A DNA stretch of 64,000 nt. It comes from an uncultured Synergistaceae bacterium. Lineage in GTDB: Bacteria; Synergistota; Synergistia; Synergistales; Dethiosulfovibrionaceae. The notes beneath the pieces were generated by a model that made no database searches, was not told where the DNA came from, and was given only the letters and a program-made list of their open reading frames with translations. The stretch covers positions 272-64,271 of the forward strand of contig CAZUQW010000009.1 of assembly GCA_964622575.1 (NCBI GenBank), read 5' to 3'. A program made the position numbers and the translations under genes. Shown here in pieces: positions 40,578 to 62,032 of this stretch (position 1 is the first letter of the stretch; each line of letters opens with the position of its first letter).

Positions 40578-42275
40578 ATGAAAATGAGACGTGGAGCGGG
40601 TGTCATTTTATTGGCAGTTTGTGCTGTCGTCGCTTTTTCAACAGCGGTGCTGGCGGCGCCTCCAAATGAACTGTTGCACAGCAGCGGAGGCGGCATGGTG
40701 GTGACGACGCAGCCTCTGGCGGACAAAATAGGACAAGATGTCCTCGCCCAAGGCGGCAACGCCGTCGACGCGGCCGCGGCGGTGGCTTACGCGCTCGCTG
40801 TGTGCCATCCGTCGGCAGGCAATATCGGAGGCGGCGGTTTTGCCATCATCCACATGGCCGACGGTACCGACACGGCGCTGGATTTCCGTGAAATGGCACC
40901 CGGTCGGGCGACTCGCGACATGTATCTGGACGCGAAGGGCAACGTGATCCCGATGGCCAGCACTCGCACGTATCTGGCTGTCGGCGTGCCGGGCACTGTT
41001 GCAGGCGTCAGTGCGATGTTGGACCGTTACGGGACGTGGAAACTCGACCGCGTCATCGCTCCGTCCATCGAATTGGCGGAGAAGGGGTTCGTCATCACGA
41101 ACAACCATGCCGAGAGCATGAAGAGCGAACGTGACAAGCTCAAGAAATTCGCCACGGGACGCCGTTACTTCCTGCACAAAAACGGCACTCCTTATAAAGA
41201 AGGCGAGCTCTTCCGCCAGAAAGACCTGGCAAAAACGCTGCGTCGTATCGCCCAAAACGGCCCGCGCGAATTCTACGAAGGCAAGACGGCCGAGCTGATT
41301 GCCGCCGATATGAAGCGCAACGGCGGTCTCATCACCAAAGATGATCTTGCCCGCTATCGCCCCATCTGGCGCGAGCCGAGCGTTGCCGACTACCGTGGCT
41401 ACAAGATCGTTTCCATGCCTCCGCCTTCCAGTGGCGGCATTATCGTTGCCGAGATTCTCAACATCATGGAAAACGCCGACATTGCCAAGATGGGATTCAA
41501 CACTCCCGCAACGCTGCATCTCATGGCCGAAGCCATGCGTCGCGCCTACGCCGATCGCAGCGAGTATCTTGGCGACCCCGAATTCGTGAAGATCCCCGGA
41601 GAACTGACGAGCAAAGAATATGCTCGTCGTCTGTTTAAGCAAATCGAGTCCGGAGCGACCCCCAGCGACAAAGTCCGTCCTGGTCTCGGAGCCTTGCACG
41701 AGGGCACCAACACCACGCATTACTCGGTAGTGGACAGCGCAGGCAACGCCGTCTCCGTGACCTATACCATCAACGAGTCCTACGGTACAGGCGCGGCAGT
41801 GAAAGGCGCAGGATTCCTGCTGAACAACGAAATGGACGATTTCTCCGTCAAACCCGGCGTTCCCAACGTGTACGGTCTGGTCGGCGGAGACGCCAACGCC
41901 GTTGAGCCCTACAAGCGGCCTCTGAGTTCCATGAGTCCCTCCATCGTTTCCAAGGACGGACGGATCTTCATGGTTCTCGGCAGCCCCGGTGGTGCTCGCA
42001 TTATCACCACAGTGCTGCAGGTGATTTCCAACGTGATCGACCATAAGATGCCCATCAACGAAGCCGTCAGCGCTCCTCGAGTCCATATGCAGTGGCTGCC
42101 CGACGAACTGCGCGTGGAACCGCAGAACGGACTCAGCAGCGAAGCCGTTGAGAGCTTGATCTCCATGGGCTACACGTTGCCGCTCAAACCCTATATGGGC
42201 GACGTCAACGCCATTCTGATCGATCCCAAGACCGGAGCGATGACGGGAAGCCACGATTCGCGCCACGAGTTTTAA
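40578..42275 (+). CDS. ggt: Gamma-glutamyltranspeptidase (secreted)
   Basis: GGNAVDAA, DFREMAP, TTHYSVVD (catalytic Thr), LNNEMDDF, RPLSSMSP, GSPGG; signal peptide. Confidence 0.95.
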   Translation: MKMRRGAGVILLAVCAVVAFSTAVLAAPPNELLHSSGGGMVVTTQPLADKIGQDVLAQGGNAVDAAAAVAYALAVCHPSAGNIGGGGFAIIHMADGTDTALDFREMAPGRATRDMYLDAKGNVIPMASTRTYLAVGVPGTVAGVSAMLDRYGTWKLDRVIAPSIELAEKGFVITNNHAESMKSERDKLKKFATGRRYFLHKNGTPYKEGELFRQKDLAKTLRRIAQNGPREFYEGKTAELIAADMKRNGGLITKDDLARYRPIWREPSVADYRGYKIVSMPPPSSGGIIVAEILNIMENADIAKMGFNTPATLHLMAEAMRRAYADRSEYLGDPEFVKIPGELTSKEYARRLFKQIESGATPSDKVRPGLGALHEGTNTTHYSVVDSAGNAVSVTYTINESYGTGAAVKGAGFLLNNEMDDFSVKPGVPNVYGLVGGDANAVEPYKRPLSSMSPSIVSKDGRIFMVLGSPGGARIITTVLQVISNVIDHKMPINEAVSAPRVHMQWLPDELRVEPQNGLSSEAVESLISMGYTLPLKPYMGDVNAILIDPKTGAMTGSHDSRHEF

Positions 42276-42337
42276 TTGATCCGGCTGTGAGGCCTTTAAA
42301 ATCTGTGTCGGTAGAAATCAAGAAGTCGTCTCAAAGT

Positions 42338-42381
42338 CGATGTGCCCTCCTTTCCGAAATTTCGGAAGGGAGGGCACATCG
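42338..42381. terminator. Terminator hairpin after ggt
   Basis: cgatgtgccctcctttccgaa...ttcggaagggagggcacatcg then tttt. Confidence 0.75.
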
Positions 42382-42716
42382 TTTTGCGGCGGCTTTATTG
42401 ATCACATTTTCAAGCATTTGCGTTGCTTGTGGAATGGCGCCTATTCCCGACTCAAACGGCGGATAGCCTTTGCCTTCCGATGAAGTGCAGCTGCCAGGTT
42501 CACTTCTCAATGATAGTTTCAATGGATTGATTCTGTTCGTTTGGGAACGGTTTGACGCTGTGTGCTTGAATTGCCAATCAGCACGATGGCCTCGAAATTC
42601 ATGGAGAAGGCCTGTTTTCATGACCTCGACAGGCAAATCGCGCACAACTTCAAATTTATCCGCTAAATATGTATTTTAGTCTTATAAGATTACTGACAAT
42701 CCAAATATAGTTGAAC

Positions 42717-42744
42717 TTGACATAATATTCATTCATTATATAAT
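42717..42744 (+). promoter_or_regulatory. sigma70 promoter of the DUF819-epimerase operon
   Basis: TTGACA-16-TATAAT in AT-rich intergenic DNA. Confidence 0.7.
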
Positions 42745-42921
42745 AAAAAAAATTGTATTCTTTTATTCACTGCTGCACGTTGCGTAGAGGTAAAAGGATA
42801 TTTTAGTAAGAAAAATTTCTATGGAAAGGAGCATTAGGGAGAAGGTGAGGCCTTTTCTTGCTGGGTGTCCAGGAAAAATCGGGCATATCAAAAAAACGCT
42901 TGAGAAAGGTTGGTGAGTTGT

Positions 42922-44124
42922 ATGGTGTCTTTGATTCAATCCAATGACACGATCTATATTTGGGCGGTGTTGTTGTGTGTTGTTCTGGTGGTAAATTGGC
43001 TCGATCAACGGTCGAAGGCAATCAATAAATTAGGGACAATTTTCCTATATGTTATCGCGGGACTTGTTTTGTCCAATTTGCACATTCTTCCCTTTTCATC
43101 TCCTGTTTATAAAACTCTCTCAGGAATTTTAGTGCCTCTTGCAATACCGATGCTGCTCTTCAGATCGAATCTGCGGAAGATTTATGAGGAAAGTGGAAAA
43201 GTCTTTATTGCTTTTAACCTTACCGCAATATCTTCTATAGTAGCTGCATTGATTTATGCACCGGTGCTTCGCAAATGGGGTATGCAAGAGGTCCCTGGTT
43301 TTGCTGCGATGTACGCAGCAGGTTCTATAGGAGGAACTGTCAATATCATCGCTATGGGAGGAACTTTTGAAGTCAGCGAAGAACTTGTGAGCGCTACGAC
43401 AATGCTTGGAAACTTTACCTTGGGTATTGTTCTCTTCGTATTGGCCTTTGCAGCAGGCTCACGGACCTATAGGCGCTATTTTAAGCATCCGCATATTGAT
43501 GAAAGGGAAGCTGCAATTCTTGCTGATCCAGAGGCTGCAAAAAAACCTTTTTCCGCTGTATTTTGGAAAGATAAAGGTATTTCTCTTCTTGACGTCCTCA
43601 AGACATTTACAACAGCGTTTGTTATTCTTGCTTTAAGCCGTCTGATTGCTAACTTTGTTGTTTCTTTGAAACCGCCTTTTGTGATTAAGCAGCTTTTCGG
43701 CAGTATATGGCTTGTTATGACAACACTATCTGTCTTGGGTGCGACATTCCTTCCTAAGTGGTTCTCTTCGCTGAAGTTCGGTGAGGAATTTGGTCTTATT
43801 CTTATGTCTCTGTGGTTTGTTAGCGTAGGCACTTCCGCAAACGTCTATAGACTTGGCCAATATGGAGCTTTTGTGCTGTTCGCATTTGTGGTTACGCTTA
43901 CATGTCATATGGTGTTGTCTTTCCTGCTCGGCAAAATCTTCCATCTCAATCTCGAAGATATTTGCTGTTCCATCGCAGCAAATATAGGCGGTCCTTCAAC
44001 AGCTGCTTCGCTGGCCATCAGTCAAGGATGGAGCAATCTTATAGCTCCGATTATTCTTTGCGCTCTTTATGGCTATATTATTGGCAACTATCTTGGCGTA
44101 TTTATTGGCAATGTCTTCATGTAA
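42922..44124 (+). CDS. DUF819-family membrane protein (putative transporter)
   Basis: About 11-12 TM segments, LVPLAIPMLLF, GSIGGTVN, ANIGGPSTA, GYIIGNYLG. Confidence 0.8.
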   Translation: MVSLIQSNDTIYIWAVLLCVVLVVNWLDQRSKAINKLGTIFLYVIAGLVLSNLHILPFSSPVYKTLSGILVPLAIPMLLFRSNLRKIYEESGKVFIAFNLTAISSIVAALIYAPVLRKWGMQEVPGFAAMYAAGSIGGTVNIIAMGGTFEVSEELVSATTMLGNFTLGIVLFVLAFAAGSRTYRRYFKHPHIDEREAAILADPEAAKKPFSAVFWKDKGISLLDVLKTFTTAFVILALSRLIANFVVSLKPPFVIKQLFGSIWLVMTTLSVLGATFLPKWFSSLKFGEEFGLILMSLWFVSVGTSANVYRLGQYGAFVLFAFVVTLTCHMVLSFLLGKIFHLNLEDICCSIAANIGGPSTAASLAISQGWSNLIAPIILCALYGYIIGNYLGVFIGNVFM

Positions 44125-44153: not shown

Positions 44154-45272
44154 ATGAGTAAAATTAAAAACATTAAAGTCAAGGTAGTCGAAGTTCCTCT
44201 GAAACGTACGTGGCAAACTTCTCTCTACGCTACGACCACTCGTGCTCATTGCATTGTCAGAGTTGAAACTGAAGATGGCATTATTGGCTATGGCGAGGCA
44301 TCGCCAGCTGCTGCATTCATGGGTGAAACGGCTTACACTATGGAGGTCGTCATTACACGCTATTTTGCTCCTGTTCTTAGAGGCGAGAGTGTGCTTGATA
44401 TATCGAAGATCAATGACCTTATGGATCAAATTATTGCCGGCAATACTTCTGCAAAAGCAGCAGTGGATATTGCAATCCATGATGCGGCGGGGAAGGCCTT
44501 AAATGTTCCCGTTTATGATTTGCTGGGGGGGCGTCTGCGCGAAAACTTTGATCTTGTCTGGTCAATGGGGTTCAAGAAACCAGAAGAATCGCTGGAAGAA
44601 GCAAAAGAGTATATCAAAAAAGGCTTTAAGGTTATGAAAGTAAAAGTCGGTAAGGGCGTTGAGAAAGATGCCCGGCTCATCAAGCAACTCCGTGAACTTT
44701 TTGGTCCTGATATCCCTATTCGTCTTGACGCAAATCAAGGGTTTACTCCTGGCGATGCAATTGCATTGCTCCATCGTGTCGTGGATTCTAATCCTGAATG
44801 TTTTGAACAGCCTGTAGGAAAATGGAATTATGAGGGAATGAGGCATGTCCGTAATCATGCCTGCGGCATAAAAATCATGGCAGATGAATCTGTCTCTTCA
44901 CTGCATGATGTAATAAATATCATCAAAAATGGCTGTGCGGATCTCTTTAATATCAAGGTCGGTAAGGTCGGAGGGCTTTACCGGGCTTGCCAAATCGCAG
45001 CTGCTGTTGAAGCTGCAGGATATCAGGCAGCAGCAGGCAGCAATCTTGAACTTGGCATAGGCGAAGCAGCCAGTGCACATTTCATAACGAGTCAGAAGGC
45101 CGTATGTTTACCTTGCGATGCTCTCTGTGGCTCGGAATTGCATACTTGCAATATTATTACGAATCCTATGGTTATGACATCAGAAGGCAAATTTTCTTGT
45201 CCAGTTACGCCAGGACTTGGAGTAGAGGTAGACGAAGGAATTTTTAGTTCAAACGCTGTAACTTTTAGTTAG
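44154..45272 (+). CDS. Enolase-superfamily racemase/epimerase (L-Ala-D/L-Glu dipeptide epimerase-like)
   Basis: KVKVG, RLDANQG, EQP, ADES, NIKVGKVGG. Confidence 0.85.
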   Translation: MSKIKNIKVKVVEVPLKRTWQTSLYATTTRAHCIVRVETEDGIIGYGEASPAAAFMGETAYTMEVVITRYFAPVLRGESVLDISKINDLMDQIIAGNTSAKAAVDIAIHDAAGKALNVPVYDLLGGRLRENFDLVWSMGFKKPEESLEEAKEYIKKGFKVMKVKVGKGVEKDARLIKQLRELFGPDIPIRLDANQGFTPGDAIALLHRVVDSNPECFEQPVGKWNYEGMRHVRNHACGIKIMADESVSSLHDVINIIKNGCADLFNIKVGKVGGLYRACQIAAAVEAAGYQAAAGSNLELGIGEAASAHFITSQKAVCLPCDALCGSELHTCNIITNPMVMTSEGKFSCPVTPGLGVEVDEGIFSSNAVTFS

Positions 45273-45644: not shown

Positions 45645-45816
45645 CATATGCAACGTCCTACAGCGTATATGCGAGTACGTCCTCAAGCATGAAGTGACTC
45701 AAGCAGCGAGGAAATATCAGACTAATTCGTCAGTTTGTCTATCGCCAATTGAAGAAGTAAGACCGAAGCACCAGGCACCTCGCCTTGAAGTCAAGAGAGC
45801 CAAAGGGCAGCTTCAT
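45645..45816 (+). mobile_element. IS481-family transposase relic (N-terminal fragment)
   Basis: DNA clearly homologous to 54860-55030 (gtgactcaagca.cgaggaaata.cagac, cagtttgtc.atcgccaattgaagaag); stops and frameshifts. Confidence 0.75.
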
Positions 45817-45999
45817 TGTTCACATAAGGGCATAGGGCAAATACCGTTATGAATGTGCCATGTTGTCTATAGTGATTGACGTCCTTTCGAGATGATTTTT
45901 GGCAAAACTATTCTAGCGGACTCAATTGTTTTTTCTATCCTCTTGGTCTCACATCTATTGCAAAGCTGCGATCAAAAAAACGTATGCAGGAGGCCTTTT

Positions 46000-46833
46000 A
46001 TGAACAAAAAAATTCCACAGAAAAAGATCTATGAAATTTTGTCTAAACTTGACGGTTCGGTAGGGCTATATATCAATGTCTTAGATACCGAGGAACTTTT
46101 TCAAATTAATCCTGATCGCGTTTTTCCATCGGCTAGTGTAATTAAGATCCCCGTATTGGCGTTGCTGTTAAAAGATGTGTTTGACGGAAAAGTAGACTGG
46201 ACGGAGCCTCGTTCGATTGCTCCGAACAACCGTGTAGGTGGTACGGGGATTCTGACCTATCTGGATAAAACGTACGAGCCATCTGTGTCGGTGTTGGCGT
46301 TCCTGATGATAACTATGAGCGATAACACAGCAACGAACGAGATCATAGATATCATTGGCTTTGATCGTTTCAATCGGTTCTGGAAAGAACAACACTATGA
46401 ACACATTACGCTGATGCGTAAAATGCTTGACCTCGAGGCAATCAAACAGGGACGCAATAACTACATGTGTGCTGGAGAAGCTGGGCGCTTGCTTGTCGAT
46501 ATCGCTACTGGAAAATGTATCAGTAAGAAAGCCTCCGGCATAATTATCGATATGATGCAACATCAGCAATGTTTGAATAAGCTACCGGCGTTATTACCGG
46601 CAATTCCTTCATGGGCTTCAGCAGAAGAACGTCAAAATATGAGCCCTGGTACTGTACTTATAGGCAATAAAACAGGCGATTTAGATGACATTCAGCACGA
46701 TGTGGGGATTTTTACGCTACCTGATGGACGTCGCTATATTATTGCCATGTTTACAGGCGATCTAAAAAATACTAGCGATGGCATTCATGCTATTGCTGAA
46801 GTTTCTCGCGTTGTTTTTGATGCGATGAGGTGA
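46000..46833 (+). CDS. Cytoplasmic class A beta-lactamase-fold serine hydrolase
   Basis: SASVIK (SxxK), SDN, KTG; no signal peptide and no recognisable omega-loop ExxLN; ATG after AGGAGG. Confidence 0.85.
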   Translation: MNKKIPQKKIYEILSKLDGSVGLYINVLDTEELFQINPDRVFPSASVIKIPVLALLLKDVFDGKVDWTEPRSIAPNNRVGGTGILTYLDKTYEPSVSVLAFLMITMSDNTATNEIIDIIGFDRFNRFWKEQHYEHITLMRKMLDLEAIKQGRNNYMCAGEAGRLLVDIATGKCISKKASGIIIDMMQHQQCLNKLPALLPAIPSWASAEERQNMSPGTVLIGNKTGDLDDIQHDVGIFTLPDGRRYIIAMFTGDLKNTSDGIHAIAEVSRVVFDAMR

Positions 46834-47045: not shown

Positions 47046-48347
47046 ATGAAAAATATAAGTATGTCTTTTACTGCTGCGGGAGATATGCTTGTTCAACGTC
47101 GACTTCCCGAAAACTACGAGGGTTTCCAAGAAGTCTCTGCGTTTATTAAGCAGGGTGACTGGAGGTATTTCAATCTTGAAACTACAATTAATAAAGGCGA
47201 AGGTTGGGCAAATCAGTATAATGGCGGATCTTATCTCAGAGCGGATGCGGGCGTTCTTGATGATGCTAGAAAATTTGGTTTTAATGTCTTGTCCTTCGTA
47301 AATAACCACTCGCTTGATTTCGGGCACTGGGGACTTTTAGACACAATAGAAGCAGTAAATAAAGCAGGTTTTCCACATGCTGGATGTGGAGAGAATCTTT
47401 CAAAAGCAGCCGCTCCGGCATATCTTGATACAAAACATGGTCGTATAGCCCTGGTTGCGGCAACATCTACTTTAAATGAAGCGTCAATGGCAGGAATGCA
47501 ATCTCGTTGCTTTATTGGGAGGCCTGGTGTTAACGGTCTTCGGCATAAAGAAATTTATCAAGTAACTCCCGATTTGTTTCAAAAGATTAAGGAAATAGCT
47601 CTAGCTACAAGTATTAATGGCTTTGATGATATTTGCAGACATGAAGGTTATCTGCCTTTACTTGAGGAGGGAACCTTTCCTTTGGGTAAACTCATGTTCT
47701 GTGAAGGCGATTGCACAAAGAGAATATCAATCCCTAATGAAGAAGATATGACTAGAATTGAACAGTCAATCTATGAAGCCGAGTTTCAAGCTGATTATAT
47801 TGTTGTAAGTATTCATTCGCATGAAGTGCAAGGTACATTAAAGGAGACTCCTGATGATTTTCTAGTAGAGTTCTGTCATCGTTGTATAGATGCGGGGGCC
47901 GATGCAGTGGTGGGACATGGTCCTCATCTCCTTCGTCCAATTGAGATTTATAAGGGATGTCCTATTTTTTATTCCCTTGGCGATTTTATAATTGAAAACG
48001 AAAACATACCTTATGCGCCTGAGGATATGTATGAAATGTATCATATGAAGTCAGACGCCTTGATGAGAGATGTTTTTAAGAAACGATCAGGAGATTTTAG
48101 GCGAGGCTTGCAAAAAGATCGTCGTGCCTTTGAGACTGTTATACCTTATTGGACTGTAAAGAATGGTGTTCTAAAGCAAATCACATTGCTTCCTCTAGAG
48201 CTTGGTTTTGGGGAACATCGATCAATGAATGGCCTTCCCAAACCAATGAAAAATGCGCCATTTATGGAGAAGTTGCAAGATATGTCGAGAAAATATGGAA
48301 CAGAAATAGTGATGAGAAAAGATGGCCTTGGGGAAATTGTTCTGTGA
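47046..48347 (+). CDS. CapA-family (metallophosphoesterase-fold) protein, cytoplasmic, copy 1
   Basis: AGD, FNLE, NNHSLD, SIHSHE, GHGPH, FYSLGDF; no signal or TM segment. Confidence 0.87.
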   Translation: MKNISMSFTAAGDMLVQRRLPENYEGFQEVSAFIKQGDWRYFNLETTINKGEGWANQYNGGSYLRADAGVLDDARKFGFNVLSFVNNHSLDFGHWGLLDTIEAVNKAGFPHAGCGENLSKAAAPAYLDTKHGRIALVAATSTLNEASMAGMQSRCFIGRPGVNGLRHKEIYQVTPDLFQKIKEIALATSINGFDDICRHEGYLPLLEEGTFPLGKLMFCEGDCTKRISIPNEEDMTRIEQSIYEAEFQADYIVVSIHSHEVQGTLKETPDDFLVEFCHRCIDAGADAVVGHGPHLLRPIEIYKGCPIFYSLGDFIIENENIPYAPEDMYEMYHMKSDALMRDVFKKRSGDFRRGLQKDRRAFETVIPYWTVKNGVLKQITLLPLELGFGEHRSMNGLPKPMKNAPFMEKLQDMSRKYGTEIVMRKDGLGEIVL

Positions 48348-48382
48348 CATGCTTGTTCCTACTGTCGAGAACAGTGTAGTTT

Positions 48383-55500: not shown

Positions 55501-56712
55501 GTGGAAAAAATCAAAGGTGAGATTATCTCTGCAATCGACGCTGCATCCGATGATCTGAAAAAACTGGCGTTGGACATTCATGACAACCCGGAGCTGGGCT
55601 GGCATGAATTCAAAGCTGTGGAATTTATCAGGGCATTTCTTGAAAAATACGGCTTTACCGTTCAGTCGAATTATAAGAACATTCCTACGTCGTTCCGAGC
55701 GGATTTCGAGGGACGGTCGGGGCGGCCTCGCGTGGCTTTTCTCGCGGAGTACGACGCGCTCAACGGCTGTGGCCACGGTTGTGGTCACAATTTGATCGCG
55801 GCGTGTTCTGCGGGCGCTTTTCTTGGCCTTGCGTCGGTGATAAAAGGACTTCAGGGCAGCGTCTGCCTTATCGGCACGCCGGCTGAAGAGGGCGGTTCCG
55901 GCAAGGTGAAGCTGTTGGACCGCGGCGCCTTCGATGACGTGGATTTCGCGCTGATGATGCACCCCTCTTCCGGCGGGGAAAGTGCCAACATTGTCGGTCG
56001 CGGCGGGCGGGCTGCCGCCGGCATGACGGTGGAATTTCACGGAAAGGCGACTCATTCGTCGGTGCCGAAAAACGGCATCAACGCGCTAAGTGCCTTGATT
56101 CATCTTTTTAACCAGATCGATCTGATGCGGCCGACCTTTGACCCGCAGGACAACATCAATGGCATTATTACCTGCGGCGGCACAGCGGCCAATATTATTC
56201 CCGATTATGCCAGTGCGTCTTTCTGTCTCCGCTCCGAAAGGATGAGCCGCGTTAACGAGCTGATGGAGCTTGTTGAAAGCTGTGCCGCCAACTCGGAGAA
56301 ACTCACTGGCGCCAAGGCCACGGTAAGCCGCGACGATGTCTCCGCCGAGCGCTATCCCAACAAGCCGATGAATCAGGCGTTTAAGGACAATATGGAGCTG
56401 TTGGGCATCAAGATGAACTGGCCCGACCCGAAGAAACAATACGGCTCTTCGGACATCGGCAACGTTTCCATAAAAATCCCCATTATTCATGACTACCTTT
56501 CGATTACCGACGACCCAATGCTTCAGGCTCACTCCAAGGAATTTGCGGCGGCGGCAGGAACTCCCGAGGCGCTCGAAGTCTGTCTCAAAGGCGCCCAAGG
56601 TCTGGCCATGACGGGCTGTGACATTTTGCTGCGTCCTGAGTTTCAGCATGAAATTGTCGAATACCACAGAGCGCAGATTCCTGAATTTTATAAAAAAGGT
56701 GAGGATGCCTGA
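55501..56712 (+). CDS. M20 peptidase/amidohydrolase (AbgB/ACY1L2-like)
   Basis: HDNPELG, AEYDAL, HGCGHNLI, GTPAEEGG, MMHP, GSSDIGNVS, HS; GTG start. Confidence 0.88.
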   Translation: MEKIKGEIISAIDAASDDLKKLALDIHDNPELGWHEFKAVEFIRAFLEKYGFTVQSNYKNIPTSFRADFEGRSGRPRVAFLAEYDALNGCGHGCGHNLIAACSAGAFLGLASVIKGLQGSVCLIGTPAEEGGSGKVKLLDRGAFDDVDFALMMHPSSGGESANIVGRGGRAAAGMTVEFHGKATHSSVPKNGINALSALIHLFNQIDLMRPTFDPQDNINGIITCGGTAANIIPDYASASFCLRSERMSRVNELMELVESCAANSEKLTGAKATVSRDDVSAERYPNKPMNQAFKDNMELLGIKMNWPDPKKQYGSSDIGNVSIKIPIIHDYLSITDDPMLQAHSKEFAAAAGTPEALEVCLKGAQGLAMTGCDILLRPEFQHEIVEYHRAQIPEFYKKGEDA

Positions 56713-57977
56713 TGTACCACGTGAGCGAAAAAAAGAAAGCTCTGTTCCAGCGGTTGCTGTCGCTGGAACAGGTCGGACGTCTGTTGAAATTTATCGAGGA
56801 TGACCAGCGCCGCTCCATTGAAGAGCAAAAGGAACTGACGCTCATTGAAGCGCCGACGGGGCACGAAGACCGGCGCGCCCAAGTCTTTGCCGACAAGCTG
56901 CGTGCTCTGGGGCTGGAAAACGTCCACCGCGATCGGGGTGGCAACGTGGTTGCGCTGCGTCGCGGCAGCGGCAGAGGTCCCAAGGTGCTTATAGAAGGCC
57001 ATTTGGACACGGTTTTTCCCTTCGGGACGGTGAAATCGGTAGAGGAGCGCGACGGATTTCTCTACGCGCCGGGCATCGGCGACGACACCCGCGCTCTGGC
57101 CATGCTGCTTTCTCTCGTACGGGGACTTGCGGCCTGCGGAGTGGAAACCGAGGGCGATGTCCTCTTTGTGGGAACCACCCGTGAGGAAGGCATGGGCGGA
57201 CTGGGCGGCATGAAAGATTTTCTCGAGGACAACGGCGACATTGATATCTCTTTGAGCGTCGACAACAATGACATGAGCGCCATTGTCTATCAGGCGACGG
57301 TGAGCGGAACCTGGGAATTTACCTTTCACGGCAAGGGCGGGCACGCCTACGGCGCCTTCGGCGAGCTGGCGCAGCCCCTTCACGCGGCGGCGCGGGTCGT
57401 GGCGGAAATTGCCGATTTCCAGGTGCCGACTCAGCCCAAAACCACGTTTTGCGTCTCCAACTTTCACGGCGGCAGCGACGCCGGCGTTCATGCCATTGCG
57501 GCGGAGGCGTCAATCAAGGTGAACCTTCGGTCCAACAGCGCAGAAGAGTTCGCCCAACTGAAGAAAAAGGTCTTCGACGCCGTGCAAAGAGGCGCCGCCA
57601 CCGAAACGGCGCGTTGGGGAAAGAACGAGATCACTGTCACGTCGCGGCAGCTCTGCGACATTCCCGGCGGCAGCCAGGACCCTCACATGCCGCTGGTGGA
57701 GGGAGCATGGATGGCGCTGGACTTCCTCGGCGTGGAGCCTTCTCTGGCCGAAGGCGGCAGCACGAACGCCAACAGAGCCATCGGAAAGGGAATTCCCGCG
57801 CTGTGTTTGGGACGGGCATACGCGCCCGACGAGAACTCCCGCAAAATCCACAATCACAGCCTCGACGAGAAGTACCCGGTGAAGGGTGCCTTCAAAGCTG
57901 TGCAGCTCGCGGCACTGATGCTGCTCATGGCTGCCGGCGTTAAAGGCGAAACCGGCTCCATCATGGATGAGGGCTGA
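56712..57977 (+). CDS. M20/M25/M40 metallopeptidase (peptidase T/ArgE-like)
   Basis: EGHLDTVF, APGIGDD, TREEG, GGHAYG, GSTNAN, NHSLDE. Confidence 0.88.
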   Translation: MYHVSEKKKALFQRLLSLEQVGRLLKFIEDDQRRSIEEQKELTLIEAPTGHEDRRAQVFADKLRALGLENVHRDRGGNVVALRRGSGRGPKVLIEGHLDTVFPFGTVKSVEERDGFLYAPGIGDDTRALAMLLSLVRGLAACGVETEGDVLFVGTTREEGMGGLGGMKDFLEDNGDIDISLSVDNNDMSAIVYQATVSGTWEFTFHGKGGHAYGAFGELAQPLHAAARVVAEIADFQVPTQPKTTFCVSNFHGGSDAGVHAIAAEASIKVNLRSNSAEEFAQLKKKVFDAVQRGAATETARWGKNEITVTSRQLCDIPGGSQDPHMPLVEGAWMALDFLGVEPSLAEGGSTNANRAIGKGIPALCLGRAYAPDENSRKIHNHSLDEKYPVKGAFKAVQLAALMLLMAAGVKGETGSIMDEG

Positions 57978-57982
57978 CGGCC

Positions 57983-59278
57983 ATGGGGACCACTTTTATC
58001 GCCACAGGCGATACTTTTATCACCCGTCGGATTCCCCAGGGGGGATATGACGGCTGCGCCGCCCTTTCTGAGCTGATCAAGCGCCATGACCTGCGTTTTA
58101 CCAATCTGGAAATGACGTTTCACCGAAGGGAAGGCGTTCCAGCTGCCGTCAGCGGCGGTACGTGGGCCATGGCCGATCCTGTCCTGTTGGACGACCTGTG
58201 CCGCATGGGCTTCAACATTTTCAACACTGCCAACAACCACTCCTGTGATTACAGCCATGGCGGCCTTCTGGCCACCATCAAACATCTGAACGAACGGGAC
58301 ATGATCTTCTCGGGAACGGGAAAGGACTTGGGCGACGCCTCGAAAGCCTGCTATTTTGAAGCCCCCAATTCCCGCGTGGCGCTGATCGGAGCGTGTGCCA
58401 CCTTCGCCCCGTCGGCTGCAGCCGGCGCGCAGTCTGCCCATATTGTCGGACGTCCCGGAATCAATCCCCTGCGCTTTGTCAGATATTATCATCTGGACCG
58501 GGCACATTTCGAAATGGTGCAGGAGCTCATCAGAGTTTCAAAGATCAATGCCGAAGAGGAGTACGTTATCAAAACGGGCTATAAAAATCCGCCACAGGCG
58601 GGAACGCTGCCGCTGGGCAAGGGCCCTCTTTTTGTCCTCGATGACAGAAATTGGATCGAGAGCTTTCCCGACGAGCGCGACATGAAGCGCATCACCGCCG
58701 AAATCTCCGAGGCAAAAAAGCAGGCCGACACGGTGATGGTCAGCATTCATGCCCATGAATACGACGGTGACGACATCAACGTCCCCGCGCAGTTCATCGA
58801 GAAGTTCGCCCGAGGCTGCATCGACGCCGGCGCCAGTGTGGTTATCGGACACGGCCCCCATCTGATTCGCGGCATTGAGCTGTACAAAGGCGGCGTAATT
58901 TTTTACAGCTTGGGAAATTTTATTTTTGAAACGGAAACCGTGGAGTTCCAGCCGTGGGACGCCTGCTTCAACAAAGGCCTGCCGCCCGACACCGGCGTAG
59001 GGGCCTACATGGACAATCGAAGCAAAAACGGCACCGTAGGCTATGGGACGTTGCCCGAAATCTGGGAAGCTTTTATGGCGTCGTGGGAAATCGACGACGG
59101 CGCCTTGAAAAACATTGAGATTTATCCGCTGTCGCTGGGCATGGGAAGCCCTCGTTCCCACAAAGGCGTGCCAGTGCTGAGTCATGACGAAAAACTACTG
59201 CGCCGCCTTGCTCGTTTGAGCGAACCCTACGGCACCGAACTGGTGATTGAAAACGGCAGAGCGTCCGTGAGAATTTGA
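57983..59278 (+). CDS. CapA-family protein, cytoplasmic, copy 2
   Basis: TGD, TNLE, ANNHSCD, SIHAHE, GHGPH, FYSLGNF; colinear with 47046-48347. Confidence 0.87.
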   Translation: MGTTFIATGDTFITRRIPQGGYDGCAALSELIKRHDLRFTNLEMTFHRREGVPAAVSGGTWAMADPVLLDDLCRMGFNIFNTANNHSCDYSHGGLLATIKHLNERDMIFSGTGKDLGDASKACYFEAPNSRVALIGACATFAPSAAAGAQSAHIVGRPGINPLRFVRYYHLDRAHFEMVQELIRVSKINAEEEYVIKTGYKNPPQAGTLPLGKGPLFVLDDRNWIESFPDERDMKRITAEISEAKKQADTVMVSIHAHEYDGDDINVPAQFIEKFARGCIDAGASVVIGHGPHLIRGIELYKGGVIFYSLGNFIFETETVEFQPWDACFNKGLPPDTGVGAYMDNRSKNGTVGYGTLPEIWEAFMASWEIDDGALKNIEIYPLSLGMGSPRSHKGVPVLSHDEKLLRRLARLSEPYGTELVIENGRASVRI

Positions 59279-59341: not shown

Positions 59342-60745
59342 GTGATGAACTGCACAGAAAGGCTGAAGCGGCGCTTTGAAAGCGGCGCCGCCGCGCTGAA
59401 AGACTACCTTGAAAAGATCATGGCGACCCACGACGCGCGCGGCATGGCCGTGGCCGTCATTGACGCCCACGACACGGTTTTGCAGGATTTTTTGGGCCTG
59501 CGGGACGCCGAGCGCGGCCTTCCCATCGACGAAAACACGCTGTTTGGCCTGGCGTCGGTGACAAAATCCTTTACGGCGCTCAGCGTCATGCAGCTGGTGG
59601 AGCGGGGAGCCGTTGACCTCTGCGCGCCGCTGGCCGACTCCATTCCCGAGTTTCACAATCTCCATCAAAAAACAGTGACGGCGGCGCACTTTCTGAGCCA
59701 CACGGGAGGCTATTACCCGCGGCCGCGGGCGCTGCTTTCCGATCTTCTGAAAAAGCTGTCCATCGACGCTTCCAAGGAAGAAGTGGCCTACGACGACCGC
59801 GTGGCTCAGGCCGCCGTGGAAGAAGTGGCTTCAGGGCTTGACGCCGACGAGCCGCGACTTGCGGCGCCCGGTCGCATGATGAGCTACTGCAACGACGGCT
59901 ACGGCTTGTTGTCCGACTTGATCCGCCGCAAGGGCGGCGAAGGAAGCTATGCCGCCTGGGTGGACAAACACATCCTCGAACCACTGGGCATGAAGCGGAG
60001 CACCTGCCGATTTCTTGCCCCGTCGCAGGACGCCAACGCGGCAAAGCTTTACACCGACCACAGCGCCGACTGGGACTACACCCGTGAGGCCTTTGTGCTC
60101 AACGGTGGCGGCGCCATGAAATCCACACTGGCCGACATGAAAAAGTATCTGCGAATGTACCTCAACCGCGGTGCCTTTGAGGGCGGACGGCTTGTTTCCG
60201 CCGAAAGCGTCGCCATGATGGTTCAGCCGCGCGTTGCCACAAAATTCGGCACAACCTACGGTTTCGGCCTGATGACCACGCAGATGGGGGATCTCACCGT
60301 TCACCGCCACGGCGGAAGTTTGCCCGGCGTGTCGTCCCACATCGCCTGGTCGCCCGAACTGGGCGCCGCGGCCATTGTGCTCTGTAACACCGAAAACGTT
60401 CCCGTTGGCATTGCTGCCGACGCTCTGCTGCGCGTCGCCGCCGGATGGCCTGTCGAGGCTGAGGATCGCTGGATCGACGAGCCGTGGGACGACGACGTGA
60501 TCCGTCGCGCCTGCGGTACCTATCGTTCTGGCGAGGGCGCCTGCTTGATCATCGGCCGCAAGGGCAAGGGAATTTCCGTGCTTGACGGCGGCAAAAAAGT
60601 TTCGTGCCGCACAGTGCGCGGCGCCAGAGCGCTTTTGACTCGCGGCATGGCCGTGTCGGAAGTTCATCTGCTTTTCGACGGAGATGGAGAAGTCTACGCC
60701 GTGCGGCTCAACGACCGCGTGATCCCCCGCATTCAGGAGCGATAG
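59342..60745 (+). CDS. Class C beta-lactamase/AmiE/D-aminopeptidase-like serine hydrolase, cytoplasmic
   Basis: LASVTKSF (SxxK), SYCNDGY (YxN), HGGSLPG; no signal peptide. Confidence 0.87.
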   Translation: MMNCTERLKRRFESGAAALKDYLEKIMATHDARGMAVAVIDAHDTVLQDFLGLRDAERGLPIDENTLFGLASVTKSFTALSVMQLVERGAVDLCAPLADSIPEFHNLHQKTVTAAHFLSHTGGYYPRPRALLSDLLKKLSIDASKEEVAYDDRVAQAAVEEVASGLDADEPRLAAPGRMMSYCNDGYGLLSDLIRRKGGEGSYAAWVDKHILEPLGMKRSTCRFLAPSQDANAAKLYTDHSADWDYTREAFVLNGGGAMKSTLADMKKYLRMYLNRGAFEGGRLVSAESVAMMVQPRVATKFGTTYGFGLMTTQMGDLTVHRHGGSLPGVSSHIAWSPELGAAAIVLCNTENVPVGIAADALLRVAAGWPVEAEDRWIDEPWDDDVIRRACGTYRSGEGACLIIGRKGKGISVLDGGKKVSCRTVRGARALLTRGMAVSEVHLLFDGDGEVYAVRLNDRVIPRIQER

Positions 60746-60750
60746 AACGC

Positions 60751-60794
60751 AAAAAAAGGGCAGGAACCGGAAAACTTCCGGTTCCTGCCCTTTT
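60751..60794. terminator. Bidirectional terminator
   Basis: aaaagggcaggaaccggaa-aac-ttccggttcctgccctttt. Confidence 0.8.
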
Positions 60795-60844
60795 GCGTTC
60801 TGAAATTCTTGCGGCATGATTTGTGCGCCGCAGCGAGGTTCTTT

Positions 60845-62032
60845 TTAGCAGTTGTCCAGTCCCTCTGCCAGGTTGTCGTACACTTCGCCGTCGATAATGG
60901 TTTTTTCGCACAGCGTGAAGTTGCAGAAAGGATTGCCGCTCCACACGGCGAGGTCGGCGTCTTTGCCGGTTTCGATGCTGCCCATGCGGCGGTCGAGGCC
61001 CAGCAGACGGGCGGGACGGATGGTCACCGCTTCGAGGGCCGTTTTTTCGCTGAGGCCGCGGGCGATGCACATTCCGATGTAGGTCGGCAGATATTTTGTC
61101 GCCGATGAGGTGTCCTGCATCAGGCTGAAGTTGATTCCTGCGGCTTCCATCTTTGCCGGCGTGGTCAGGCGCGTTCCCCAGATTTCCATTTTCCGCGGCT
61201 CCATGGTCAGCGGTCCCACCACGCAGTCCACGTGGTGTTCTTTGAGGAAATCCAAAATCTTGTAGCCCTCGGTGCAGTGTTCGATGGAATAGTTCAGGTG
61301 GAACTCTTCGGCGATGCGCACTGCCGTGACGATGTCGTCGGCGCGGTGGGCGTGGAAGCGACATTTTCTCTCTCCCCGCACCACGGGCACCAGCTCTTGA
61401 AGTTTGAAGTTTCTCTTGGGCTTCTTCGACGGGTCCTTTTCGGCTTCGCGTAGCTCTTCGGAATAATCGAGAGCTTCGTAGAGCAGTTTTCTCAGCGTCG
61501 CCGCCACGCCCATGCGGGTCATGGGCATTTTGTGCTGCTCAAGGCCGTAGACGCGCTTGGGGTTCTCTCCCATGGCGAATTTCATGTGTTCCGATCCGGC
61601 GATGGCGATGTCGAAAACGGTCGACCCCTGCTTCGTCTTGAAGCTGATGCCGATGCCGCCGCAGACGTTGGCCGATCCGGGGCCGGTGTAGCAGGTGGTG
61701 AAGCCCGCACGTCGCGCCGCGCCAATGGCCATGTCGAAGGGGTTCAGCGCGTCGATGCCGCGGACCTGCGGAGTGGTGGGATCGGTCTTTTCGTTGCCGT
61801 CGACGATCATGGGCAGAGTTTGAGGCTCGTTGAACGTGGAAATGTGGGTGTGGGCGTCGATAAACCCGGGAGTCAGCCATTTGCCCTCAAGATTGAGTGT
61901 CTCGCAGCCCGCCGGTGCGGCGAGGTCGACGCCGACGGAATGGATTTTTCCTCCATCCACCAGCACAGAAGCTCTCTCAAAGGTCTTTCCCGTCACGGTC
62001 AGCACTTTTGCGTTTTGCAGCAGCAGCATCAA
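60845..62032 (-). CDS. Metal-dependent amidohydrolase (Amidohydro_1)
   Basis: PGFIDAHTH, KFAMGENPKR, FHAHRADD, IEHC, GSIETGKDADL. Confidence 0.9.
   Translation of the reverse strand: MMLLLQNAKVLTVTGKTFERASVLVDGGKIHSVGVDLAAPAGCETLNLEGKWLTPGFIDAHTHISTFNEPQTLPMIVDGNEKTDPTTPQVRGIDALNPFDMAIGAARRAGFTTCYTGPGSANVCGGIGISFKTKQGSTVFDIAIAGSEHMKFAMGENPKRVYGLEQHKMPMTRMGVAATLRKLLYEALDYSEELREAEKDPSKKPKRNFKLQELVPVVRGERKCRFHAHRADDIVTAVRIAEEFHLNYSIEHCTEGYKILDFLKEHHVDCVVGPLTMEPRKMEIWGTRLTTPAKMEAAGINFSLMQDTSSATKYLPTYIGMCIARGLSEKTALEAVTIRPARLLGLDRRMGSIETGKDADLAVWSGNPFCNFTLCEKTIIDGEVYDNLAEGLDNC

Follow-up and report, generated by a model that had tools for sequence, protein, structure and literature searches.

Two versions of a putative peptide salvage system in a mosaic region of a Pyramidobacter genome

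The window, a 64,000-nucleotide segment of a Pyramidobacter genome, contains at 40578–62032 a stretch that is best explained as two rearranged copies of a widespread, hitherto undescribed operon type. Each copy has a gene for a soluble PGA_cap-domain protein resembling the lasso-peptide epimerase MslH (CAP_lo and CAP_hi). On balance, we lean slightly towards the view that a variable region, bounded by a tRNA cluster and by a histidine-utilisation operon, gathered two versions of one cytoplasmic, CAP-centred system, which would salvage peptides with D- or other non-canonical residues. Gene content, homologies, conserved catalytic residues, fold, and conserved neighbourhoods are directly established; from these we infer epimerase activity, as well as substrates, direction, and co-regulation.

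A mosaic stretch and its independent neighbours

A sequence-only reading had proposed a single catabolic island here. All genes that it listed were verified by Pfam or NCBIfam matches, and both ends of the stretch fall on gene boundaries. Its statement that sugar and capsule-synthesis genes are missing also holds, with no sugar-metabolism gene, capB, or capC found in the stretch. The stretch is nevertheless no single island or pathway but a mosaic of four or more units spread over both strands, as judged from GC differences, IS relics, and assembly breaks with about fivefold depth; moreover, a relative with 73% identity (L089) retains only its M20-M20-CAP-S12-amidohydrolase part. The GC content is 0.40–0.45 across 42.3–49.3 kb versus 0.50–0.62 elsewhere, and no donor was found for the low-GC block. 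A cluster of tRNA-Thr(tgt), tRNA-Tyr(gta), and tRNA-Thr(ggt) (39676..39947, + strand; ARAGORN and Rfam tRNA) bounds the variable region on the left.

IS-transposase debris occupies two of the unit junctions, at 45.66–45.85 kb and 54.84–55.32 kb. The second is an internally deleted transposase relic (54839..55324, +), whose translation reads as an HTH region fused to the C-terminus of an integrase core with one internal stop (rve_3, E = 0.009); by tblastn it matches an annotated HTH protein at 2e-9 and an annotated integrase-core protein at 4e-4. The first is a frameshifted fragment of the N-terminal HTH region (45661..45847, +), which has 81% nucleotide identity over 138 nt to 54874–55010 and aligns with the relic peptide by tblastn at 77% amino acid identity over 22 residues and 47.5% over 40 residues. 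DNA assembly X1 breaks at both places, and at the relic the small pieces have a depth of 25–60 versus 11 in the flanks. A degenerate or non-coding stretch whose ORF translations include integrase-like peptide fragments 'IRLYSRSHSGKVEHSHRED' (48350..49250, −) may tentatively be a further IS relic; it has no Pfam match and no plasmid blastn match. A 53-nt repeat (40397..40449, +; repeat family D5), 75% identical to the 3' end of the relic (55271–55323) and ending in TTGACAA upstream of the gamma-glutamyltransferase (GGT) gene, is possibly a solo IS end, the match comprising two copies only.

The GGT gene (40566/40578..42275, +) matches PF01019 at 3e-176 and TIGR00066 with 619 bits (cutoff 358). 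Its product was described as secreted, in agreement with a hydrophobic, signal-peptide-like N-terminus. The GC content of GGT is host-like, the gene comes with promoter-like and terminator-like sites of its own, and 634 nt separate it from the next gene; it is absent from all fetched loci, L089 included, and is an independent neighbour outside the conserved systems. The earlier gamma-glutamyl idea rested on reading 'CapA' and GGT together, as one co-regulated island acting on gamma-glutamyl polymers or peptides such as poly-gamma-glutamate or glutathione. GGT is indeed genuine and secreted, the PGA_cap domain occurs twice, poly-gamma-glutamate chains are a proposed substrate of CapA (PMC8179263), and RNA contigs of low depth from one sample touch all units. 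Against this, GGT lies beside CAP orthologues in 0/80 loci, neither CAP protein is membrane-anchored, and capB and capC are absent from the window and from the recurrent CAP neighbours in those 80 loci. Together with the separation of GGT, this makes the gamma-glutamyl island very improbable.

The DUF819 membrane protein (42910..44124, +; PF05684, 1e-57; 55 hydrophobic windows), a family classed in the CPA/AT transporter superfamily (PMC8396727), is encoded 29 nt upstream of an enolase-type epimerase gene and behind a consensus promoter-like TTGACA-16-TATAAT at 42717–42744. It has no homologue in any fetched locus and is tied to the system by adjacency only. An IclR regulator (62387..63172, +; Pfam) and hutI (63188..64000, +; truncated by the window end; TIGR01224, 282 bits, 229/377 model positions) had been noted next door. 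Both are present, but they are a histidine-utilisation operon unrelated to the system, as the same locus in L091 continues as IclR-hutI-hutU-hutH.

CAP proteins and their neighbourhoods

CAP_lo (47046..48347, +; PF09587, 7e-56) and CAP_hi (57983..59278, +; PF09587) had been named CapA. The PGA_cap domain is confirmed, but the proteins are soluble and MslH-like; neither sequence has a hydrophobic segment or membrane anchor. CAP_lo and CAP_hi align over the full length with MslH (PDB 8GQ9) at 2e-63 and 2e-60, respectively. The NCBIfam MslH model NF038314 matches them at 1e-70 with 235 and 246 bits, far below its equivalog cutoff of 700 bits, and function is therefore transferred from MslH by family, not by orthology. 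MslH is a metal-dependent lasso-peptide epimerase that inverts the Cα of the carboxy-terminal residue, and has eight residues essential by mutagenesis or structure (PMC10406935). All eight are invariant in CAP_lo, CAP_hi, and ten relatives. The AlphaFold model of CAP_hi (pLDDT 84.6) superimposes on MslH with a TM score of 0.87, and its C-terminal ~110 residues are matched by MslH only. Peptide epimerisation is the sole biochemical activity demonstrated in the family; those who discovered it have suggested this activity for CapA too (PMC8179263). By sequence and model, the CAP proteins thus look like peptide epimerases, not capsule proteins. Whereas MslH requires a long, leader-bound substrate, the CAP proteins would act on short peptides.

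The CAP proteins could instead be hydrolases on a metallophosphoesterase scaffold (amidase, peptidase, or phosphoesterase), serving ordinary peptide or amide catabolism without stereo-inversion. Their fold is calcineurin-like, with phosphatases and nucleotidases as the structural neighbours after MslH, and the conserved MslH residues are compatible with hydrolysis because they stem from the general metallophosphoesterase scaffold. RpiR/MurR-type regulators in relatives also suggest a phosphorylated effector. We consider this reading distinctly unlikely: no phosphatase exceeds a TM score of 0.40, the full-length match is to MslH only, and the His293/Asp10 pair, which in MslH has taken on proton transfer in place of metal binding (PMC10406935), is kept. 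In addition, a literature search found no hydrolase activity reported for PGA_cap proteins.

We inspected 80 genome loci with CAP orthologues, from Bacillota, Sutterellaceae, Chloroflexota, Bacteroidota, and others. Of these, 48 have an M20 gene within ~2.7 kb of CAP, compared with 7/80 in distal control zones of equal size (~7-fold), and 49 same-strand M20 genes directly adjoin CAP. A hydrolase is near CAP in 58 loci; the other 22, some on truncated contigs, have no recognised one there. The commonest transporters beside CAP are Opp/Dpp-type peptide ABC systems with SBP5 proteins, and SBP5-OppBCDF is directly upstream in ~20 loci. Close relatives of CAP_lo are flanked by a permease or SBP5 on one side and by M20 on the other.

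Co-occurrence in other genomes, which had been named as one test of the island, is seen for two gene subsets but not for GGT, DUF819, IclR, and hutI. Since the same families recur together elsewhere, the clustering of these two subsets goes beyond chance. It was conceivable that a variable region rich in IS elements, in a peptide fermenter that has many peptidases in any case, had collected unrelated hydrolase genes that share no pathway. Mosaic composition, IS debris, units on both strands with separate regulators, and the lack of conserved linkage for those four genes speak for it. For the stretch as a whole we hold such accumulation to be highly doubtful: the families form contiguous same-strand operons in distant genomes, M20 is enriched beside CAP, and genes within units are −1 to 63 nt apart. 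Chance is contradicted for the two systems, and best describes the relation of GGT, IclR, and hutI to the rest.

Composition of the two systems

System 1 is the M20b-M20c-CAP_hi-S12 operon with a convergent amidohydrolase gene. Its first gene encodes M20b, an M20D-type dipeptidase (55402..56712, +; Pfam; TIGR01891, 213 bits) closest to 7YH4, deposited as Xaa-Arg dipeptidase (7e-61), and HmrA 3RAM (2e-54). The gene for M20c, an M20/M28-type exopeptidase (56712..57977, +; Pfam), overlaps the M20b stop by 1 nt. M20c matches 7LJH, deposited as poly(aspartic acid) hydrolase, at 7e-57 over nearly its full length; PahZ2 cuts both alpha- and beta-Asp bonds. These relatives bear out the relevance given earlier to the M20 peptidases. 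Orthologues of M20c (median 64% identity) stand immediately upstream of CAP in 13–15 of the 80 loci. CAP_hi starts 5 nt past M20c, and 63 nt further follows a Pab87-like S12-family serine peptidase (59342..60745, +; PF00144, 2e-52) with no signal peptide and with SVTK, YxN, and HGG motifs; its orthologue is immediately downstream of CAP in 7 loci. Its structural matches are Pab87 (2QMI, 2e-30), alkaline D-peptidase (4Y7P), and R61 DD-peptidase, and Pab87 degrades D-amino-acid peptides only (PMC2651629). The amidohydrolase-superfamily metallohydrolase (60845..62032, −; PF01979/PF07969; 3OOQ, 2.5e-80) is convergent with S12. In L089, system 1 is kept at 73–83% identity (M20b 82%, S12 79%, amidohydrolase 83%) adjoining an Opp operon, and the amidohydrolase is the last gene of SBP5-OppBCDF.

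System 2 is best explained as a rearranged operon, with permease-M20a-amidase and a LysR regulator on one strand, and BlaA and CAP_lo plus DUF819 and the enolase-type epimerase on the other. The DcuC/Na_H_antiporter-like permease (52106..53407, −; weak Pfam matches; 84 hydrophobic windows) is followed by M20a, an M20D-type amidohydrolase/aminoacylase-like peptidase (50882..52060, −; PF01546/PF07687; TIGR01891, 302 bits, above cutoff), and, after a 20-nt gap, by an amidase-signature amidase that closes the unit (49359..50858, −; PF01425, 8e-83; NF005300, 547 bits, passing the cutoff of 494). The LysR-family regulator (53708..54601, −; PF00126 and PF03466; a 297-aa gene call in L001) is encoded on the same strand as the permease, 237 nt upstream of it.

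BlaA (45892/46000..46833, +; PF13354, 2e-56) is a class-A-beta-lactamase-fold serine hydrolase and a homologue of DD-peptidases. Both such hydrolases named earlier are present, with the correction that this class-A-like one has SxxK, SDN, and KTG without ExxLN. It scores 93.7 bits against NF033103 (cutoff 200), and its nearest structure is the penicillin-binding-type peptidase Tll2115 (2J7V, 2e-25). Translation probably begins at Met37 (46000), which yields a 277-aa protein without a signal peptide; orthologues have 261–280 aa, and a metagenome gene call has 277 aa. The enolase-superfamily (MLE subgroup) racemase/epimerase (44154..45272, +; MR_MLE_N/C) matches 3JVA (2e-60), 2P88 (1e-56), and 1JPM (6e-56). 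It keeps KxK, the second lysine, and three metal ligands, but only one Asp of the DxD motif, and stays below every NCBIfam equivalog cutoff. Tyr25 replaces the Glu-binding Arg24 of YkfB, so neither the former 'Ala-Glu-type' label nor the muropeptide link based on it is proven. By sequence, the protein is closest to dipeptide epimerases, and may be none at all.

Four relatives have this system in one operon, with 35–79% identity to the permease, M20a, BlaA, and epimerase here. The order is RpiR-permease-BlaA-epimerase-CAP-Opp in L118 and L119, and permease-(CN_hydrolase)-M20-BlaA-epimerase in L120 and L121; CAP is thus present in 2/4. The first gene of the BlaA-epimerase operons is 50–72% identical to the permease, M20a orthologues are 50% identical in L121 and 39% in L120, and L121 is also headed by a LysR (27% identical). 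The RpiR/MurR-type regulators at the head of relatives' operons are sugar-phosphate sensors, which sits oddly with a pathway for peptides only.

Proposed function

Most likely, the systems take up small peptides or N-acyl amino acids that contain D- or other non-canonical residues, invert the carboxy-terminal residue, and then hydrolyse the product. The region has three predicted Cα epimerases, two MslH-type and one enolase-type, and two serine hydrolases; the closest solved structures to these are of a D-stereospecific peptidase (Pab87) and a penicillin-binding-type one (Tll2115). A catabolic role on non-canonical, especially D-residue, peptides is still the best reading, as first suggested.

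The substrates might, however, be N-acyl, N-succinyl, or N-carbamoyl amino acids converted from D to L and deacylated. The enolase-type protein would then be an N-acylamino-acid racemase, the M20D enzymes aminoacylases, the amidase or CN_hydrolase a deacylase or decarbamoylase, and CAP a second racemase for the same free-carboxylate substrates. The enolase-type protein lacks the full DxD motif and matches 2P88 and YkfB equally well; the entry 2P88 bears a generic family name, and we take it to be the B. cereus N-succinyl-Arg/Lys racemase. Both M20a and M20b score above the cutoff of TIGR01891, an 'amidohydrolase' model of aminoacylase type, and CN_hydrolase lies within the L120 and L121 operons. 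Sakai et al. reportedly described in 2006 an N-succinylamino-acid racemase partnered with an M20 desuccinylase. Yet the prevailing transporters beside CAP are of the peptide type, the S12 and class-A-like peptidases and the PahZ2-like exopeptidase suggest peptide bonds, and the window has no GNAT or succinyltransferase. This route is unlikely.

In the CAP-centred salvage that we prefer, small peptides or N-acyl amino acids with D-residues, possibly beta- or gamma-linked, would be imported by the DcuC-like permease or DUF819 here and by Opp/Dpp ABC systems in relatives. The MslH-type and enolase-type enzymes would bind the free terminal carboxylate through a metal and interconvert the D and L forms of the C-terminal residue. 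The L-specific M20 metallopeptidases, amidase, and amidohydrolase would cleave the inverted product, while the S12 and class-A-like serine enzymes would handle D-residues at termini or D-Ala-D-Ala-type bonds. Substrates may originate from aged proteins, non-ribosomal peptides, or peptidoglycan stem peptides, the last being a plausible source. The freed amino acids would enter fermentation in this asaccharolytic Synergistota organism.

Gene content of the region and its two PGA_cap proteins

A tRNA Thr/Tyr/Thr cluster (39676-39947) is followed by a secreted gamma-glutamyltransferase (GGT, 40566-42275), a DUF819 protein (42910-44124), an enolase-superfamily enzyme (44154-45272), a class-A-beta-lactamase-fold protein (45892-46833) and a first PGA_cap protein (CAP_lo, 47046-48347). 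The minus strand then carries an amidase (49359-50858), an M20 peptidase (M20a, 50882-52060), a permease (52106-53407) and a LysR regulator (53708-54601). Two further M20 peptidases (M20b, 55402-56712, and M20c, 56712-57977), the second PGA_cap protein (CAP_hi, 57983-59278) and a PF00144 serine hydrolase (S12, 59342-60745) are on the plus strand and converge with a minus-strand amidohydrolase (60845-62032), after which come an IclR regulator (62387-63172) and a truncated hutI (starting at 63188). The sequence-only reading had taken the genes from GGT to the amidohydrolase for one candidate ~21-kb catabolic island for D-amino-acid or gamma-glutamyl peptides; its gene list is complete at the locus, and the ends it assigned coincide with gene boundaries. 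Because hutI, hutU and hutH come after IclR in the same MAG, IclR and hutI belong to a histidine-utilisation operon.

GGT scores 619.5 bits with TIGR00066, above the equivalog cutoff of 357.85, and has a hydrophobic N-terminus (GVILLAVCAVVAFSTAVLA) as export signal. A 43-nt imperfect palindrome directly after its stop codon lies at the GC boundary (42317-42402), and a perfect sigma-70 consensus, TTGACA-16-TATAAT (42717-42744), precedes DUF819. DUF819, a member of the CPA/AT transporter superfamily (PMC8396727), is tied to the enolase-type epimerase by a 29-nt gap only and has no counterpart in any locus fetched for comparison. Further upstream in the window are an outer-membrane efflux gene, an M23 peptidase and an AMP-binding enzyme. 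A long cobalamin biosynthesis operon of the anaerobic type (~18000-34300, minus strand, GC 0.62-0.65) precedes the variable region; it encodes CbiK, CbiD, CbiG, CbiJ, tetrapyrrole methylases and a HemD fusion, and includes a FecCD/ABC/periplasmic-binding-protein transporter.

CAP_lo and CAP_hi are 37% identical, and both have the PGA_cap domain (PF09587; 190 and 179 bits against a Pfam gathering score of 27). The NCBIfam MslH model (NF038314) matches both at 1e-70, with 235 and 246 bits against an equivalog cutoff of 700; by these scores, they are family members, not MslH orthologues. Structures of MslH, the C-terminal Trp epimerase of the lasso peptide MS-271 in Streptomyces (PDB 8GQ9), are the only solved relatives of either protein, with end-to-end alignments at 1e-60 to 1e-63 and ~31% identity; the alignment of CAP_lo to MslH spans residues 11-433. 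MslH coordinates Ca(II) through Glu44, Asn87, His259, and His261 and has two acid/base dyads, His88/Asp91 and His295/Asp11, mutation of which abolishes activity (PMC10406935). In both window proteins and in 10 relatives, these eight metal-binding and acid/base positions carry the same residues as in MslH. The AlphaFold model of CAP_hi (pLDDT 84.6, pTM 0.87) matches MslH 8ITG and 8GQ9 with TM scores of 0.87/0.86 over the whole chain, including the C-terminal region, and the next-best structural matches are generic metallophosphatases with TM scores of 0.35-0.40. The CAP proteins and MslH have in common family, length (~430-440 aa), soluble architecture, the eight residues and, as modelled for CAP_hi, the predicted fold. 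Unlike mslH, the CAP genes belong to operons of anaerobes that encode peptidases and transporters; lasso-peptide genes (precursor, B1/B2, C) are absent from the window and from the recurrent neighbours of CAP relatives. The CAP role is presumed to be catabolic and the substrates are presumed to be short. Exact-sequence look-up returned no match for CAP_hi and, for CAP_lo, only metagenome copies of the same locus. A protein that NCBI lists under a Pyramidobacter MAG is 100% identical to CAP_hi, and the window is assigned to a Pyramidobacter sp. (Synergistota).

The PGA_cap domain is common to CapA/PgsA of poly-gamma-glutamate synthesis in Bacillus, which is membrane-anchored and the operon partner of CapB/CapC. 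In contrast, the window CAPs have no N-terminal anchor; neither contains a hydrophobic segment, the maximal 19-residue hydropathy being 0.94 and 1.31 and no value exceeding 1.6. No capB or capC (pgsB/pgsC) occurs in the window, where every ORF in 40-64 kb falls to another family, and no capB/capC cluster was found among the neighbours of CAP relatives in 80 loci. CapA/PgsA is part of a membrane-bound complex, and CapA itself has been proposed as the epimerase that puts D-Glu into poly-gamma-glutamate (PMC8179263); no activity other than peptide epimerisation has thus been demonstrated for the PGA_cap family. Literature searches found no catabolic role for PGA_cap/MslH-type proteins and, on MslH-type enzymes, only two founding papers and lasso-peptide reviews.

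Peptidase operons around CAP relatives and the two systems of the window

We scanned one genome per species and obtained 80 loci with relatives 52-66% identical to CAP_hi, which come from Lachnospiraceae, Oscillospiraceae, Sutterellaceae, one Flexilinea and one Hallella. Neighbouring ORFs were clustered without reference to the window, and the clusters were then annotated by Pfam. The recurrent neighbours are M20 peptidases, five Opp/Dpp peptide ABC transporter genes, a PF00144 hydrolase, a DcuC-like permease, an amidohydrolase, and an asparaginase. By tblastn, 48 of the 80 loci have an M20 gene no more than ~2.7 kb from CAP, compared with 7 of 80 for distal zones of equal total length; 49 same-strand M20 genes directly adjoin CAP, and some hydrolase is near it in 58/80 loci. 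The usual order is SBP5-OppB-OppC-OppD-OppF-M20-CAP-(S12 or M20) in Lachnospiraceae and Flexilinea, and DcuC-amidohydrolase-CAP or DcuC-M20-asparaginase-CAP in Sutterellaceae. Close relatives of CAP_lo follow an AraC-type regulator and are flanked by a permease or SBP5 on one side and M20 on the other. The operons around CAP relatives are peptide-utilisation operons. CapA-seeded neighbourhoods, suggested with the sequence-only reading as a check, bear out one part of the proposed gene set: M20, PF00144 and amidohydrolase genes recur beside CAP, but GGT, DUF819, the amidase-signature enzyme, and IclR were detected by tblastn in none of the 80 loci.

Two variants of these neighbourhoods were observed. 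In Sutterellaceae and relatives (L044, L048, L051, L054, L057, L058, L063, L072), CAP is accompanied by a DcuC-like permease, an amidohydrolase or secreted type-II-like asparaginase, and a GntR regulator. In a Caldicoprobacterales relative (L087/L088, 1-9284), an M20-CAP pair directly follows the methylaspartate mutase E subunit and methylaspartate ammonia-lyase of glutamate fermentation, and an AtuA/DUF4387/GNAT_C set also lies ahead of the pair.

In the window, M20b, M20c, CAP_hi, and S12 are spaced by -1, 5, and 63 nt, and we refer to them, together with the convergent amidohydrolase, as system 1. All five genes keep their order and orientation in L089, a locus from the same metagenome sample that probably belongs to a related Synergistota (identities: M20b 82%, M20c 76%, CAP 73%, S12 79%, amidohydrolase 83%). 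An outer-membrane efflux gene lies upstream there too, and an SBP5-OppBCDF operon ends with the amidohydrolase gene. Nothing in L089 matches GGT, the low-GC block (42300-49300) or the amidase unit of the window. A DUF1177 gene (L089 6446-7375) stands immediately before M20b-M20c-CAP-S12 on the same strand and has no counterpart in the window.

The nearest solved relatives of M20b are HmrA and entries deposited as Xaa-Arg dipeptidase. The nearest one of M20c is PahZ2 (PDB 7LJH; 7e-57, near full length), a poly(aspartic acid) hydrolase from Sphingomonas sp. KT-1. This metallopeptidase works as an exo-enzyme and splits oligo-aspartate at alpha- as well as beta-amide bonds (PMC13017698). PahZ2 resides in the periplasm and its substrate is a synthetic polymer, whereas M20c lacks a signal sequence and is encoded in an operon with a predicted epimerase. 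S12 (PF00144, 178.8 bits) has the motifs SVTK72, YCN182, and HGG323 (SxxK, YxN, H/KxG), as expected for the S12 group of D-stereospecific peptidases (Pab87, D-aminopeptidase, alkaline D-peptidase, R61). Its best PDB match is Pab87 (2QMI, 2e-30), a 'CubicO' S12 peptidase from Pyrococcus abyssi, which is specific for D-amino-acid peptides and whose gene sits among peptide transport and metabolism genes (PMC2651629). The S12 motifs and such a gene setting are common to both, but the likeness is modest and the host here is a mesophilic bacterium. Pab87 itself has a C-terminal lipocalin domain and forms an octamer.

System 2 consists of the permease, M20a, class-A-like, epimerase and CAP_lo families. 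The closest named relatives of the epimerase are in Synergistota (Aminivibrio 74%, Dethiosulfovibrio 55%); a metagenome scan seeded on it gave only 27-31% relatives, of no use for synteny. L118 (Aminivibrio) and L119 encode on one strand an RpiR-type regulator, a 433-aa membrane protein, a 277-aa class-A-like protein, the epimerase, a PGA_cap protein, and SBP5-OppBCDF. L120 has a regulator, permease, class-A-like protein, epimerase and M20, and L121 has LysR, RpiR, permease, CN_hydrolase, M20, class-A-like protein and epimerase. Across these L118-L121 operons, the membrane protein is 50-72% identical to the window's permease, the M20 is 39-50% identical to M20a, the class-A-like protein 35-51% to its window counterpart, and CAP 51-53% to CAP_lo. 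Because of these identities, we regard the low-GC block and the amidase-M20a-permease-LysR unit as containing the gene families of one operon type, split and rearranged. In L016 (Hungatella), a class-A-like gene and an enolase-superfamily gene adjoin M20-CAP-M20. The regulators heading the operons of relatives (L118 3676-4566, L119 3658-4587, L120 3915-4763, L121 1821-2687) are of the RpiR/MurR/HexR type, in whose place the window has LysR. They combine HTH_6 with a SIS sugar-phosphate-binding domain, which is unexpected for a peptide pathway, and may hint at a cell-wall-derived (MurNAc-type) inducer.

The epimerase keeps the MLE-subgroup fold, KxK, the second catalytic Lys, and the Asp/Glu/Asp metal ligands; its alignment to 1JPM/1TKK contains MKVKVGK, LDANQG, FEQPV, MADES and NIKVGKVGG. 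It is about equally close to 3JVA, a broad-specificity dipeptide epimerase, to YkfB (1JPM), and to 2P88, which is deposited under a generic family name and which we take to be an N-succinyl-Arg/Lys racemase. Its NCBIfam scores are below every equivalog cutoff (175.7 bits for NF041118, cutoff 500; 60.5 bits for NF011708, cutoff 343). Arg24 of YkfB, which binds the Glu side chain, aligns with Tyr25. The DxD motif of dipeptide epimerases binds the alpha-ammonium group of the dipeptide; the corresponding 'LPCDAL' has a single Asp, which pairs with the first DxD Asp in the alignment to 1JPM and with the second in that to 3JVA. With Tyr in place of Arg24, one DxD Asp and scores short of the cutoffs, the earlier label 'Ala-Glu-type' is unjustified.

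The class-A-like protein contains SxxK, SDN, and KTG and lacks ExxLN, the Glu166 element of class A beta-lactamases; it scores 93.7 bits against a cutoff of 200 for the NCBIfam class A model. Its nearest structure is Thermosynechococcus Tll2115 (2J7V, 2e-25), presumably the cyanobacterial PBP-A DD-peptidase, and no entry deposited as a beta-lactamase is nearer. The protein is unlikely to be a beta-lactamase. The likeness to Tll2115 lies in the three motifs without ExxLN; by contrast, the window protein and its orthologues are probably cytoplasmic. The orthologues are 261-280 aa long, have no signal peptide, and are always found beside an enolase-type epimerase.

Mosaic structure and transcripts

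The segment at 42.3-49.3 kb has a GC content of 0.40-0.45 and a GC3 of 0.30-0.42, compared with 0.50-0.62 and 0.60-0.77 in the rest of the stretch. A repeat of ~147 nt occurs at 45663-45809 and 54874-55019, upstream of both CAP units. We considered a shared leader or riboswitch and rejected it, as the repeat has no Rfam match and translates as a transposase helix-turn-helix (HTH), which makes the copies IS relics. Copy 1 covers the HTH region and is frameshifted, and copy 2 reads through into an integrase-core C-terminus (rve_3 E = 0.009; tblastn 2e-9 to annotated HTH and 4e-4 to annotated integrase-core genes). The relics of this one IS family (HTH plus integrase-core transposase) extend over 54839-55324, an internally deleted copy, and 45661-45847, an N-terminal fragment. 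X1, an assembly of DNA from the same organism, is interrupted precisely at both relics, and the small pieces there have ~5x the flanking depth; intact IS copies are therefore probably present elsewhere in the genome. A 53-nt stretch upstream of GGT (40397-40449) resembles the relic 3' end and is possibly a solo 3' end. At 48350-49250 (minus strand) lies a degenerate stretch with integrase-like peptide fragments, whose ORFs have no Pfam match and no blastn match in plasmids; we tentatively consider it another IS relic. A single X1 contig links 46111 to 58486, leaving out 12374 nt; its shorter side measures 21 nt, and both of its sides have loose ends. Rather than a true deletion, it probably represents a contig from a different organism or a short word that is shared.

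Loci that hold the closest relatives of the low-GC block's genes have a GC content of 0.45-0.57, none so low as the block itself, so that no donor could be named. A foreign-phylum origin for the whole block was rejected: the nearest relatives of the epimerase are in Synergistota and those of the adjacent CAP_lo in Clostridia. Everything between the efflux gene and system 1 is missing from L089. Hallmarks of a genomic island are present, namely tRNAs at 39.7-39.9 kb, atypical GC, IS relics, and absence from the close relative L089. The variable region comprises several insertions, not the single island of the sequence-only reading.

About one third of the sampled words of both systems are present in two metatranscriptome runs. 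The contigs are short, at a depth of 1-5, and fall on each of the units and on non-coding DNA as well. At most, they indicate that the RNA preparations contain sequence from the region, and they settle neither co-regulation nor DNA carry-over. Three RNA contigs span the junctions DUF819/epimerase, class-A-like gene/CAP_lo, and CAP_hi/S12, and are compatible with co-transcription.

Candidate route and substrates

What the evidence supports is a set of conserved cytoplasmic operons in which a transporter is joined by one or two predicted C-alpha epimerases and by several exopeptidases. The nearest characterised relatives of those peptidases act on D-configured or otherwise non-canonical peptide bonds. 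In the simplest route, small peptides or N-acyl amino acids with D-residues would be imported, and the residue bearing the free carboxylate would be inverted, presumably through an enolate stabilised on the metal-bound carboxylate, a principle common to MslH and enolase-type epimerases. L-specific M20 enzymes would then cleave the product, and the serine enzymes may take D-residues directly.

This route parallels muropeptide recycling by E. coli MpaA-YcjG with PepD and by B. subtilis YkfABCD, which follow the same logic: a D-residue peptide is imported, its C-terminal residue is inverted, and an L-specific metallopeptidase acts on it. An MLE-subgroup enolase-superfamily enzyme with the catalytic Lys pair and metal ligands, as in those modules, is encoded in the window too. 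However, the epimerase scaffold is different, and in place of MpaA, LdcA or NlpC/P60 the window's enolase-type enzyme is partnered by M20D enzymes, an MslH-type epimerase, and a serine hydrolase of the class-A-like kind.

Three kinds of substrate are candidates: fragments of peptidoglycan stem peptides, D-Asp/isoAsp peptides derived from aged proteins, and N-acyl-D-amino acids. The second is hinted at by the PahZ2-like M20 and by the asparaginase neighbours in Sutterellaceae; that type of neighbourhood and M20c could together point to aspartyl/isoaspartyl or D-Asp peptides. The gamma-glutamyl reading finds nothing in its favour apart from GGT lying nearby; GGT accompanies CAP in 0/80 loci, and capB/capC are absent.

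The window locus is a rearranged example of a widespread and apparently undescribed operon type. We propose, with a confidence somewhat short of even, that soluble CapA/MslH-family proteins make up a large class, so far unrecognised, of C-terminal peptide epimerases with a catabolic role, functionally analogous to enolase-type dipeptide epimerases, with both types in one operon in Synergistota. Acting alongside M20 and D-specific serine peptidases, they would enable anaerobes of several phyla, in the gut and in bioreactors, to import and ferment D-residue peptides, for example non-ribosomal peptides, aged proteins, and debris of cell walls. Thousands of bacterial genes from the gut and bioreactors carry the current annotation despite having no membrane anchor and no capsule partners; if the proposal is true, a large family would gain a corrected, testable function. 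In genome annotation, the name beta-lactamase should be avoided for the class-A-like and PF00144 proteins of the window. For inverting peptide-bound residues in catabolism, the enolase-superfamily dipeptide epimerases provide the first known scaffold, and the CapA/MslH-type family would then be only the second. Substrate-tolerant C-terminal epimerases would also be of interest to peptide engineers. For the anaerobes themselves, it would be a route to carbon and nitrogen from D-amino-acid peptides, a pool that is closed to ordinary peptidases and about whose turnover in the gut little is understood.
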